From contig JACOXN010000003.1 in assembly GCA_016176295.1 (NCBI GenBank), positions 28,212-92,211 on the forward strand: 64,000 nucleotides of DNA, in the 5' to 3' direction. Position 1 is the first letter of the stretch. Every line of letters begins with the position of its first letter. The position numbers and the translations under genes were made by a program. Under the pieces are notes generated by a model that ran no database searches, was not told the origin of the DNA, and saw only the letters and a list, made by a program, of their open reading frames with translations. Below are positions 62,563 to 64,000 of this stretch, in pieces. The stretch comes from Candidatus Giovannonibacteria bacterium (lineage in GTDB: Bacteria; Patescibacteriota; Minisyncoccia; UBA11713; 2-01-FULL-45-33).

Positions 62563-63318
62563 TCATTTAGTAGATTTTAAAACAATTATCCTCCCGGAAA
62601 AACAGTTAATAAAATCTTCCGCGCGAACGAAATAATTTTCCTGGGTATCATTATAAAAACCGGCCGGGTCATTGATATAAAATCCTGAAATCCTGCCAAA
62701 ATCGATCTTAAAACCAAGTACCACCACCAAATGTCCGTTTTTATCCACATGGTTAACCCCGCGGTAGCGTATCTGGTTGGAAACCGACGCGATGACAAAA
62801 TTATTTTTTAATATTTCAGAAGCAATAGTATGGATACCTATGAACCATAGCAGTTTTCCGGAAAAACCGAAGCTTTCCGCGAATTTTAAAAATTGATAAT
62901 GCAAAAGCCCGATAAGCCGTTTGGGATTTTCCGGATTTTCTCTGTAACACCCGGCTTTAAACGCCCTCTTCCCCAATTCTACAATCGGAGGAGGCTGGAT
63001 GCCGGTAGCTTTTAAAATCATTGAAAAACAAGCCATCCCGCAAAGCTTGGGCACCCAAAAAACATAGTCATAGAGTGACTCTGCTCCGGAGCCCCGCCAA
63101 TTGGGATCATCGCGAAGATTATCATCATTCTCCACGAACTTTTCCACCATCTGGGGGCTTGCGAACTGGCAAACATAGGGTATCTTGTCTGAAATACGGT
63201 AATCTCCATCCTTCAACGCGGCAATTTTTTTTGCAAATTTTTTTTCCTGAAGATTTCCTGCAATTTTATACCCAAAATATAATAATTTCTTTTTGACCAG
63301 TTTTTTTATCTTACTCAT
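62563..63318 (-). CDS. Peptidase C39-like (papain-fold) domain protein
   Basis: YVCQFASPQ ... KLCGMACFSMILKATG (candidate catalytic Cys) and a downstream NGHLVVVLG (candidate His). Confidence 0.5.
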   Translation of the reverse strand: MSKIKKLVKKKLLYFGYKIAGNLQEKKFAKKIAALKDGDYRISDKIPYVCQFASPQMVEKFVENDDNLRDDPNWRGSGAESLYDYVFWVPKLCGMACFSMILKATGIQPPPIVELGKRAFKAGCYRENPENPKRLIGLLHYQFLKFAESFGFSGKLLWFIGIHTIASEILKNNFVIASVSNQIRYRGVNHVDKNGHLVVVLGFKIDFGRISGFYINDPAGFYNDTQENYFVRAEDFINCFSGRIIVLKSTK

Positions 63319-64000
63319 CGGAGTTCCGCCCCGAATTGCCTGGCGGTTTCGCTATATACATCGTTTTGAATCTTATCGACCTCTTCCGTAACCAACGTCC
63401 TCTCATTCGATCGGTAAACTATCCGATAGGTGTAGCTGGTTTTTCCTTCGCCAAATTTTTCTATATTTTCATATTTGTCCTTAAGCTCTACTTGTTCGAT
63501 AAGATCTCCTCCCAGGTCACGAATAAGGTCAAAATAGTTATTCGGAACGAAAGCATTGGAAACAATAAAAGAAATATCGCGGATTATCGGAGGATATTTG
63601 GAAACTTCCCTGAATTTATTCCCCAGCTTCAGCTGTTTCTTTACTCTGGGGTCATCGGACCAGAGAAGACGGATATCCGGCAATTCCATACTGATTATGG
63701 CCAAGCGCTCCAGCCCGAAACCGAAAGCCCAGCCGCCCCACACTTTTGAATCAACACCCAATTTTTCGAGAACCGAGGGCTGAGCGATGCCGCCGCCCAG
63801 AACTTCCAGCCATTTGCCGTCCTTTTCTATCTCCATTTCAATAGAATCATATGTGTACGGAAAAGAATCATCATTGAACCGATACTTTATGTCCGGACCT
63901 AATGCCGCCTGAGCGATCTTTACAAGCGCCGCTTCGAGATCAAGGCGCGTTATTTTTTTCTTGTCATTCCTCGTCAAATAAAGCCCGTCTATTTGATGAA
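63315..64000 (-). CDS. pheS: Phenylalanine--tRNA ligase, PheS catalytic core fused to a C-terminal FDX-ACB anticodon-binding domain (mitochondrial-type); 5' end outside the window
   Basis: The frame is open to base 64000 (..HQIDGLYL = class II motif 2 FHQxEG). Motif 3 is [25 protein letters not shown]. It is followed by [55 protein letters not shown], the FDX-ACB pattern seen in human FARS2. Confidence 0.85.
   Translation of the reverse strand, partial: [227 protein letters not shown]

Follow-up and report, generated by a model that had tools for sequence, protein, structure and literature searches.

The open reading frame that runs off the end of the 64,000-nt stretch of Candidatus Giovannonibacteria DNA analysed here (the window) raises the question of whether a bacterium carries, and lives by, a single-chain phenylalanyl-tRNA synthetase (PheRS) of the mitochondrial type. 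An earlier note on this DNA had described the frame as FARS2-like, with an anticodon-binding domain fused to the catalytic core. The frame was confirmed to be part of a real gene for a single-chain, mitochondria-type PheRS, and the encoded protein, P0001, is probably the housekeeping PheRS of the Giovannonibacteria-type Patescibacterium that carries it. It follows the single-subunit plan of the mitochondrial enzyme and would be expected to act as a monomer and to form Phe-tRNAPhe.

The gene and its domains

The window holds the final 227 codons of the gene on the minus strand (Table 1), from a TGA stop at 63315-63317 to the window edge at 64000, through which the frame remains open; about 159 N-terminal codons lie beyond that base. 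The complete gene, which the earlier note had proposed to recover past the edge, was found in an NCBI record (HYT01_00590, Candidatus Giovannonibacteria) and on Logan assemblies. It specifies a protein of 386 aa, P0001, which is 100% identical to the translated fragment, and on Logan assembly L001 it occupies positions 2472-3632. An identical protein is encoded on two independent Logan assemblies, so that a mis-assembly does not account for it. All of the peptide strings quoted in the earlier note are present in the translation.

Table 1. Features of the PheRS locus, with positions in the window.
Feature	Position	Strand	Evidence
gyrB	56821..58785	-	Pfam
Downstream co-directional Peptidase_C39_2-like protein, 251 aa	62563..63318	-	Pfam PF13529, E 3e-9
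ATGA overlap, PheRS TGA with ATG of the downstream gene	63315..63318	-	Sequence, ORF list; same 4-nt overlap on L001
3' part of the monomeric PheRS gene, codons 160-386 and TGA	63315..64000	-	Translation, P0001 match, L001
R386, fourth predicted G34-reading residue (human Arg414), last codon	63318-63320	-	HMMER alignment
FDX-ACB domain (residues 292-386), a homologue of domain B8 of PheT	63318..63602	-	PF03147, model 1-94, E 2e-22
D333, Y335 and S347, predicted G34-reading residues	63435..63479	-	HMMER alignment to human mtPheRS
Linker between core and anticodon-binding domain, residues 282-291	63603..63632	-	Stretch left between the Pfam matches
C-terminal half of the class II PheS-type catalytic core, residues 160-281	63633..63998	-	Pfam PF01409, model 126-245, E 9e-26
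Class II motif 3, 11 residues G248-L258, including A250, G252 and R257	63702..63734	-	Translation, alignment
F205-P206-Y207-T208, phenylalanine pocket (E. coli PheS F248-P-F250-T251)	63852..63863	-	Alignment to E. coli PheS

Two domains were recognised by Pfam in the fragment, tRNA-synt_2d at residues 1-122 (E 9e-26) and FDX-ACB at residues 133-227 (E 2e-22), and they were also the only ones found in full-length P0001 (PF01409, 46-281; PF03147, 292-386); the scan of P0001 gave no PF02912 coiled coil and no B1, B2, B3/4 (editing), B5 or B6/7 domain. In ordinary bacteria, the FDX-ACB domain forms the end of the beta subunit. Its fusion to the C-terminal side of a PheS core, as claimed in the earlier note, is borne out by the PF03147 match. 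The same note held that the chain continues far beyond motif 3, which is correct, as 129 residues follow R257 of 386, but the figure of about 15 residues that it gave for a canonical PheS was too low, the E. coli protein having 26 (R301 of 327).

The best solved relative of the fragment was human mitochondrial PheRS (mtPheRS), matched over both domains (HMMER E 8e-46, last 211 residues), while bacterial PheS chains reached E ~1e-19 and PheT B8 E 2e-6 in the same search. Alignment to the human enzyme reproduced the FARS2 strings that had been quoted, and the linker together with the preceding 11 residues aligned to the human hinge in 3CMQ. An AF2 model of P0001 (pLDDT 88, pTM 0.83) matched the closed form of human mtPheRS (3CMQ) with TM 0.78/0.74 and an rmsd of 3.0 Å over 388 columns, and the open form (3TUP) with TM 0.57; against bacterial PheS chains the core alone was covered (TM 0.52-0.54). 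The two-domain arrangement of mtPheRS, core-linker-FDX-ACB, is present in P0001, and the model predicts that its fold and domain arrangement are those of mtPheRS as well.

The overlap of the PheRS stop codon with the start of the downstream gene suggests co-transcription or translational coupling of the two. The Peptidase_C39_2-like neighbour was not kept beside the PheRS gene in other lineages when neighbourhoods were compared. About 4.5 kb of other genes lie between gyrB and the PheRS gene in the window, and no tRNA genes were found within its 64 kb.

Residues, proposed mechanism and known PheRS forms

Residue conservation was scored over 200 aligned family members. H93 and R96 (HPAR), motif-2 R147, H160 and Q161, F205-P-Y-T208, A250, G252 and R257 were invariant or nearly so: F205, P206 and T208 did not vary, position 207 was Y in 190 sequences and F in 10, and motif 3, including A250, G252 and R257, was unchanged in 200 of 200. 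A250 is the counterpart of E. coli A294, the specificity-determining alanine. Conservative changes relative to reference PheRS were E to D163, F to Y207 and S to T115. The first of these affects the glutamate that binds the substrate amino group in the E. coli and human enzymes, which is aspartate in 190 of the 200; this Glu-to-Asp change is common to many forms that pass the TIGR00469 model. The remaining 10 sequences have glycine at this position, which may be due to an alignment shift. Apart from these conservative changes, the residues with which PheRS binds Phe and ATP are kept in the P0001 family.

In human mtPheRS, G34 of tRNAPhe is read by Asp364, Phe366, Ser375 and Arg414 (PMC7540514). 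These map to D333, Y335, S347 and R386 in the HMMER alignment, positions that were invariant in 198-200 of the 200 family members, and the capacity to recognise G34 is likely to have been kept along with them. With domains, fold, and catalytic and anticodon-reading residues all agreeing with the monomeric mitochondrial enzyme, the description of the architecture as FARS2-like stands.

In the mechanism proposed for P0001, the PheS-type class II core would activate Phe with ATP and transfer it to tRNAPhe, and the FDX-ACB domain, joined to the core by a short hinge, would read G34 in the anticodon, GAA. If the enzyme moves as human mtPheRS does, it would be closed at rest, and the anticodon-binding domain would swing open to admit the tRNA. 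As there is no B3/4 editing domain, accuracy against tyrosine must rest on the active site alone, where A250 is conserved.

Three PheRS forms have been distinguished, the bacterial (alpha-beta)2, the archaeal and eukaryotic cytosolic (alpha-beta)2, and the mitochondrial (PMC3275996), the last of which has been described as a monomer (PMC7540514). Compared with the canonical (alpha-beta)2 enzyme (TIGR00468 and TIGR00472), P0001 has a core homologous to PheS and a C-terminal domain homologous to PheT B8, but is specified by one gene rather than two and is missing PF02912 and the B1-B7 domains; it presumably works by the same chemistry and recognises the anticodon in the same way. The mitochondrial enzymes (human FARS2, yeast Msf1, the TIGR00469 pheS_mito model, 3CMQ, 3TUP) share with it the PheS core-hinge-FDX-ACB chain, the lack of an editing domain and of the N-terminal coiled coil, and a like packing in the closed state (TM 0.78). 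They differ in being products of eukaryotic nuclear genes, whereas the genes of the P0001 family belong to bacterial genomes, beside gyrB; in an insertion after motif 2, which is 30-60 residues long in the eukaryote-type sequences sampled and 6 residues in P0001; and in the Glu of their FHQxEG motif, which is Asp in P0001. The location on a bacterial chromosome and the separate clade described below make P0001 the same kind of enzyme as mtPheRS and not an organellar orthologue.

Among curated models, P0001 reached 238.4 bits with TIGR00469 (cut-off 258.35) and five other members 223-242 bits, while P0121, a representative of the family at 50% identity, passed with 264.3; the threshold of this model is operational, not biological. 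The TIGR00468 (PheS) score of 159 bits was below the cut-off of 237.45, and TIGR00472 (PheT) was matched by B8 alone (model 694-798 for P0001, 693-798 for the fragment), with 73.8 bits where the cut-off is 402.65. P0001 is named "hypothetical protein" by NCBI; in JGI the fused protein goes under "alpha chain" and a 140-aa, B2-only protein under "beta chain", names by which the unusual architecture is hidden. The PheS and FDX-ACB fusion is already recorded in databases (TIGR00469, NF051887, JGI names); full-text literature searches on single-chain PheRS in CPR bacteria and on SrmL turned up no account of the P0001 family.

Housekeeping enzyme or extra copy

Relatives of P0001 were found in at least 572 GTDB species of Parcubacteria/Paceibacterota, carriers including Giovannoni-, Doudna-, Nomura-, Zambryski-, Lipton-, Wolfe-, Staskawicz-, Nealson- and Portnoybacteria, so that the survey of the fusion across Patescibacteria suggested in the earlier note gave a broad distribution. 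Hundreds of orthologues of 378-395 aa, with identical architecture, lie on long CPR contigs, and the gene is present in a closed genome of 943 kb (CP064996.1). In 54 of 83 related loci gyrB was inside the flank, often directly downstream of the monomeric PheRS gene, and secE-nusG-rplK-rplA and prfA were also among the neighbours in CPR genomes. The bacterial context was recognised correctly in the earlier note, given the Patescibacteria contigs, the nearby gyrB and the typical CPR neighbour genes. Median identity to the window proteins was 62.6% for PheRS and 62.1% for GyrB; the monomeric PheRS gene evolves as slowly as gyrB, in the manner of a housekeeping gene.

Searches for a second enzyme with phmmer and hmmsearch --max (P0001, family HMM, E. 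coli PheS and PheT) found no further pheS or pheT in the 64-kb window, and flanks totalling 1.2 Mb, taken from 80 related genomes, contained no canonical pheS or full pheT. A genome-wide view was provided by a public anvi'o marker matrix of 178 CPR genomes, in which 25 were positive for FDX-ACB but without PheT B5, and 24 of these 25 were also without Phe_tRNA-synt_N; as the matrix has anonymised identifiers and binary domain calls, we infer that this class corresponds to the P0001 family. Its median completeness proxy was 0.96, and among genomes with a proxy of at least 0.9, Phe_N was called in 47 of 66 with B5 versus 1 of 21 without (p = 4e-8). These counts argue that the monomer is the sole PheRS in genomes with FDX-ACB and without B5, provided that class and family are rightly equated. 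In some B5-positive genomes of the matrix the monomer may co-occur with B5.

The main alternative is that a normal pheS-pheT pair lies elsewhere in the genome and that the fused PheRS is an accessory paralogue, kept as a backup, to confer resistance or to serve a special pool of tRNAs, and perhaps acquired horizontally, for example from a phage. Canonical pheST was indeed found in some Paceibacteria, with the name 'Nealsonbacteria' attached to both PheRS types, but one Paceibacterales MAG in which both genes are of the canonical type had a single K01889 gene, and hence no monomer (Kuroda tables). Monomeric PheRS genes also occur on contigs of huge phages and giant viruses, and so may be mobile, and the related bacterial family SrmL bears the name 'mystery' ligase; set against this are the conservation of the gene at the level of gyrB, its synteny with gyrB across lineages, and the near-complete CPR genomes with FDX-ACB that are without B5 and Phe_tRNA-synt_N. 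Genomes of ~0.7-1 Mb would, moreover, hardly be expected to retain a redundant synthetase. An accessory role is considered unlikely. Most likely, the P0001-type enzyme replaces the (alpha-beta)2 PheRS in its lineage rather than supplementing it; its own genome would then be without pheST, and P0001 would function independently of a beta subunit.

A possible partner is encoded at some loci. At 13 of 76 related loci, and also on L003 and L004, the gene directly upstream of the one for the monomeric PheRS encodes a PF01588 protein of 135-170 aa. Its best match was PheT (TIGR00472 positions 38-152, 94-112 bits), it scored below the YtpR cut-off, and it can be likened to the stand-alone, PheT-B2-like tRNA-binding proteins YtpR (NF045760), TapR (NF045867) and those of the Trbp111/CsaA type. 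A role as a cofactor that binds tRNA in trans is plausible for it. No protein of this kind, and no tRNA_bind ORF, was found within the window.

It is far less probable that P0001 is a non-canonical, SrmL-like ligase, with the shape of a PheS core and FDX-ACB domain but a role other than the charging of tRNAPhe, for example in a biosynthetic pathway. SrmL proteins (NF051887) are likewise bacterial, of similar length and of the same domain composition, and their model is the closest curated one by score, being the top NCBIfam match of P0001 with 257.4 bits (other members 245-260); the CPR clade also joins SrmL and other bacterial forms in a neighbour-joining (NJ) tree, with a bootstrap of 84. 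The cut-off of the model is 300 bits, however, and the seven true SrmL (359-446 bits), from which a residue signature was derived here rather than taken from a published definition, carry His where P0001 has F205, are without the HPAR histidine, and no longer possess Y335, S347 or, for the most part, R386, whereas the phenylalanine pocket, the HPAR histidine and the G34 residues are kept in the CPR family. Neighbouring genes differ too, with radical-SAM, Asn-synthase-like and NUDIX genes at the one SrmL locus compared, versus gyrB, secE-nusG-rplK-rplA and prfA in CPR genomes. Membership of P0001 in SrmL was rejected on score (257 versus 300) and residue signature.

That the gene is an artefact, such as a chimera made in assembly, a reading of two neighbouring genes as one, or contamination of the bin by eukaryotic or viral DNA, is hardly credible: the window edge does cut through the gene, and mis-binning does occur (one GTDB match was in a Binatia-labelled bin, on the 4.5-kb contig L016), but the ORF is unbroken through both domains, the identical protein recurs on two independent assemblies and in the NCBI MAG, and the hundreds of orthologues of the same architecture, including that of the closed genome, are on CPR contigs with typical CPR genes as neighbours.

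Evolutionary setting and significance

In the NJ tree the CPR enzymes were recovered as a separate clade (bootstrap 100) that did not fall inside the eukaryotic sequences, and the eukaryotic enzymes clustered with those of huge phages, of giant viruses and of protists. Monomeric PheRS from viral contigs (IMG/VR; uncultured phage LR745206.1, 635 kb) have the same architecture and residues as P0001 in ~340-370 aa, are also without the eukaryotic insertion, and in many cases show the Glu-to-Asp change. They differ in passing TIGR00469 (283-335 bits), in grouping with the eukaryotic sequences and not with the CPR clade, and in being carried by viral contigs, whereas the CPR forms lie on cellular chromosomes. 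No close viral match was found in the BFVD structure library.

Among the other sequences collected, the N-terminally extended relatives P0142, P0147, P0269 and P0184 had no PheT editing domains; P0147 is fused to AlaRS, and P0269 to TACO1/YebC. P0226 and P0253, considered as canonical PheS, were found instead to be intron-split fragments of eukaryotic genes.

The bearing of the fusion on the origin of the organellar enzyme, raised in the earlier note, is weaker than hoped, as the CPR clade stands apart from the eukaryotic enzymes in the NJ tree. A wider scenario can be framed, although we regard it as doubtful: the monomeric, editing-free PheRS would not be an organellar invention, but an old, mobile, prokaryote- and virus-borne enzyme that displaced the (alpha-beta)2 form in much of Patescibacteria, in some lineages with a stand-alone PheT-B2 helper, and a viral or CPR-like donor, rather than the alphaproteobacterial ancestor, would have given eukaryotes FARS2/Msf1.

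The plan of the enzyme itself is already known from mitochondria, and it is its family in Patescibacteria that NCBI has left unnamed. TIGR00468 and TIGR00472 both belong to the bac120 marker set of GTDB, and CheckM relies on related domains; lineages with the monomer would score as missing both genes. The CPR, Oligoflexia-type, SrmL, viral and organellar forms offer a series for asking how the fusion arose and spread, and a compact single-chain bacterial PheRS could serve orthogonal translation work. If a large bacterial radiation does run on a monomeric PheRS, it would be a fourth case beside the three PheRS forms, and translation in its cells would go on with no editing by PheRS, a point of interest for the way in which cells with reduced genomes tolerate Tyr-for-Phe errors.

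Structure, fold and functional residues of the fused gene

The open reading frame that reaches the window edge was taken in the earlier note for a fused phenylalanyl-tRNA synthetase (PheRS), with an FDX-ACB-type extension following the PheS core, and this extension proved to be real, far beyond chance. All of the peptide strings quoted there were found in the translated fragment, in which Pfam placed the second half of a PheS-type class II core (PF01409) on residues 1-122 (E 9e-26) and a complete FDX-ACB domain (PF03147) on residues 133-227 (E 2e-22). Recovery of the gene past base 64000 gave a complete protein of 386 aa, P0001 (NCBI "hypothetical protein HYT01_00590", Candidatus Giovannonibacteria), identified by protein search, 100% identical across the fragment and carrying both domains on one chain. 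Only PF01409 (46-281) and PF03147 (292-386) were found by Pfam in full-length P0001, and neither the PheS N-terminal coiled coil nor any other PheT domain; 129 residues follow the motif-3 arginine, versus 26 in E. coli PheS. A mis-assembly, a gene-fusion artefact or a separate gene is excluded as the source of the extension, because the same protein is encoded without interruption on two independent Logan assemblies. In the window and on the contig with the complete gene (L001) alike, the PheRS stop and the ATG at the start of the following gene share bases (ATGA).

Among solved structures, human mitochondrial PheRS (mtPheRS) was the top match by far, with both domains aligned (E 8e-46), while bacterial PheS chains matched only the core of the fragment (~1e-19) and PheT chains only its last domain (~2e-6). 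An AlphaFold2 model of P0001, with 24 family members as input (pLDDT 88, pTM 0.83), superposed on the closed human enzyme 3CMQ (TM 0.78, rmsd 3.0 Å, 388 columns), compared with a TM of 0.57 for the open form, 3TUP, and bacterial PheS chains covered just the core of the model.

Catalytic residues were placed by alignment to E. coli PheS, and their conservation was counted over 200 family sequences. Invariant or nearly so were H93 and R96 of the HPAR motif, the motif-2 arginine (R147), H160 and Q161, the Phe-pocket motif F205-P-Y-T208 (E. coli FPFT), A250 and G252, and the motif-3 arginine (R257). A250 corresponds to E. coli A294, which sets para-position specificity (PMC3275996). The sole systematic difference in catalytic residues was Asp163, a Glu in the E. 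coli and human enzymes, and Asp at this position is also common to many forms that pass the mitochondrial family model. Human mtPheRS reads G34 of tRNAPhe through Asp364, Phe366, Ser375 and Arg414 (PMC7540514), and the counterparts of these, D333, Y335, S347 and R386, were invariant in 198-200 of the 200 sequences. Such a set is what one would predict for a synthetase whose product is still Phe-tRNAPhe(GAA). The match in domains, fold and residues identifies the CPR family, the bacterial monomeric PheRS clade that includes P0001, as PheRS of the mitochondrial type, and the main interpretation of the earlier note holds.

Curated families and phylogenetic position

P0001 scored below every curated cut-off, with 238.4 bits to pheS_mito (TIGR00469; cut-off 258.35), 159 bits to pheS (TIGR00468; 237.45) and 257.4 bits to SrmL, "PheS-related mystery ligase" (NF051887; 300), which is probably why NCBI labels it a hypothetical protein. 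A 50%-identity representative of the CPR family passes TIGR00469, with 264 bits. Identity of the CPR family with SrmL was rejected, both on this score and on the residues of the Phe pocket, HPAR motif and G34 contacts. In seven true SrmL proteins, which exceed its cut-off (359-446 bits), His occupies the position of F205, the HPAR histidine is missing, and the G34-reading aromatic and serine are lost, as mostly is the arginine, whereas the CPR family retains F205, the HPAR histidine and the G34-reading residues. At one locus, the SrmL gene is in divergent orientation beside genes for a radical-SAM enzyme, a NUDIX protein and an Asn-synthase/QueC-like protein, and these neighbours suggest a biosynthetic rather than translational role.

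Of 1.84 billion cluster representatives searched, 236 matched with E < 1e-30. Two of the proteins found are apparent fusions, in which a monomeric PheRS is joined to an AlaRS core (P0147, 872 aa) or to a TACO1/YebC domain (P0269, 669 aa); they could be real or merged eukaryotic gene models. In a neighbor-joining tree, rooted on a single PheS sequence and built on 350 columns from 93 representatives with both domains (100 bootstraps), the CPR family and SrmL each formed a clade with bootstrap 100, and both stood with a few other bacterial forms (e.g. Oligoflexia P0124) apart from all eukaryotes (bootstrap 84). Eukaryotic enzymes grouped instead with forms of ~340-370 aa, which pass the TIGR00469 cut-off and, where examined, lie on huge-phage-like contigs (L090, 160 kb; L091, 341 kb), on 48 IMG/VR contigs (L092-L139), giant-virus MAGs included, on a 635-kb uncultured phage, and also in the protist Vitrella. 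Since the CPR clade lies apart from the eukaryotes, the window gene does not appear to be the direct source of FARS2, and the bearing on the origin of the organellar enzyme is weaker than proposed in the earlier note. A wider picture, in which monomeric PheRS would be mobile and carried by viruses, with a possible viral link to FARS2, is suggestive on this distance tree with its single-PheS root; the origin of FARS2 would point more to viral relatives than to the CPR clade.

Distribution and gene neighbourhood

The family is large, and its members are closely conserved. The best 120 database matches were 70-100% identical over the fragment and all had both domains, with lengths of 362-395 aa, a few truncated entries aside. 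A scan of one genome per species found a relative in at least 572 GTDB species, and the fusion, for which the earlier note had proposed a survey across Patescibacteria, is widespread; the best 80 loci all belonged to Parcubacteria/Paceibacterota-type lineages, bar one contig labelled Binatia. The latter (L016, DASPNG010000107.1, a 4.5-kb contig of the MAG 'Candidatus Binatia') carries a B2-only gene and a monomeric PheRS of clear Parcubacteria type, and is probably mis-binned. Wolfe-, Staskawicz-, Nealson- and Portnoybacteria were found in a further search to carry the family as well.

Of 83 loci, 54 had gyrB in the flank, often directly downstream of the PheRS gene, and for the same genome pairs the median identity was 62.6% for PheRS and 62.1% for GyrB. 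In a closed 943-kb genome and on one other long contig, the neighbourhood extends into secE-nusG-rplK-rplA and prfA. Such synteny and GyrB-like conservation are housekeeping behaviour. The PheRS gene is followed at once by gyrB in many relatives; in the window ~4.5 kb (58786-63314) lie between them. Long ORFs of the window are almost all on the minus strand, and no tRNA genes were found across its 64 kb.

In L003 and L004, and at 13 of 76 related loci, an ORF of 135-170 aa on the same strand directly precedes the gene for the monomeric PheRS. Its domain is tRNA_bind (PF01588), and of the curated models PheT scores highest, over its B2 region (TIGR00472 positions 38-152, 94-112 bits), with YtpR behind it. 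The family numbers ~770 proteins (123-173 aa in all of the 120 matches listed), many labelled "PheRS beta chain" by JGI. From their sequences, these lineages would effectively combine the PheS core and B8 in a single chain and provide B2 as a separate protein, in trans. No tRNA_bind ORF was found in the window.

Coordinates of features in the window and at related loci
Feature	Sequence	Coordinates	Strand	Remarks
Large lamin-tail-domain protein, 1233 aa	window	1097-4798		
Large protein with lamin-tail and PKD domains	window	45723-47195		
ThyX-like ORF	window	51151-52509		
97-aa protein, no Pfam match	window	58939-59232		between gyrB and PheRS
M24 peptidase	window	59341-60549		between gyrB and PheRS
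D-Ala-D-Ala ligase	window	60634-61719		between gyrB and PheRS
Acidic 117-aa protein, no Pfam match	window	62198-62551		between gyrB and PheRS
C39-like peptidase	window	62563-63318		between gyrB and PheRS
Monomeric PheRS ORF, 3' part	window	63315-64000	minus	227 codons; stop TGA at 63315-63317; open at window edge 64000
B2-only ORF	L003	9540-9998	same as PheRS	upstream of PheRS
B2-only ORF	L004	9601-9999	same as PheRS	upstream of PheRS
B2-only ORF	L016	2884-3363		example among L010-L089
B2-only ORF	L025	304-732		example among L010-L089
B2-only ORF	L037	9595-9999		example among L010-L089
SrmL gene	L140	8001-9149		divergent, next to radical-SAM, NUDIX and Asn-synthase/QueC-like genes
Eukaryote-grouping PheRS	LR745206.1	613860-614756		uncultured phage

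The monomer as probable sole PheRS of the cell

No second PheS or PheT homologue was found in the 64-kb window, nor any other PheS or PheT in 1.2 Mb of flanks from 80 related genomes, where E. coli PheT matched only the C-terminal domain of the CPR family itself and the small upstream tRNA_bind ORF. Canonical pheT (B3/4, CLM, B5, FDX-ACB) and pheS (with PF02912) are both present in PMX_810_sub, a Paceibacterales MAG with full annotation (Kuroda et al., PMC9600506, Table S3); this MAG has exactly one K01889 gene, and therefore no monomer. Canonical PheRS persists in some Paceibacteria, and does not co-occur with the monomer in this genome.

Presence/absence calls were parsed for the first 178 CPR genomes of the anvi'o single-copy-gene matrix (Additional file 1 of PMC8672522), in which B5 marks PheT only, FDX-ACB marks PheT or the monomer, and Phe_tRNA-synt_N marks canonical PheS only. 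FDX-ACB occurred without B5 in 25 of the 178, and 24 of these also lacked Phe_tRNA-synt_N. Their median completeness proxy was 0.96, on a par with canonical genomes, with 17 at 0.9 or above. In the 87 genomes of highest completeness, 47 of 66 with B5 had Phe_tRNA-synt_N, versus 1 of 21 without B5 (Fisher p = 4e-8). As B5 and FDX-ACB share one PheT chain, FDX-ACB without B5 in a near-complete genome places the domain on another protein; neither subunit of the canonical enzyme can be detected in such genomes. Genome identifiers are anonymised in the matrix, and this class presumably corresponds to the CPR family, which is carried by early GW2011 CPR genomes (L081, L084, L086). In the same matrix the value for enolase is 0.18 in this class and 0.92 in B5-positive CPR genomes; since enolase is mostly missing, PheRS type goes along with a group that is coherent in metabolism or lineage. 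Drawn from flanks of related genomes and the anonymised matrix, the evidence makes it quite probable that the monomer is the only PheRS of the cell.

For P0001, the domain composition, the fold, the conserved contacts to ATP, Phe and G34 and the lack of an editing domain are established, as are its housekeeping-like conservation and synteny. The chain would work as a monomer, activating Phe and then charging tRNAPhe, with G34 recognised via D333, Y335, S347 and R386. It may cycle between closed and open, tRNA-bound states, as does human mtPheRS, the model resembling the closed rather than the open structure, and discrimination against Tyr would fall to the active site alone (A250). With the CPR family, the monomeric kind of PheRS has a new, unnamed member that is bacterial and of wide distribution.
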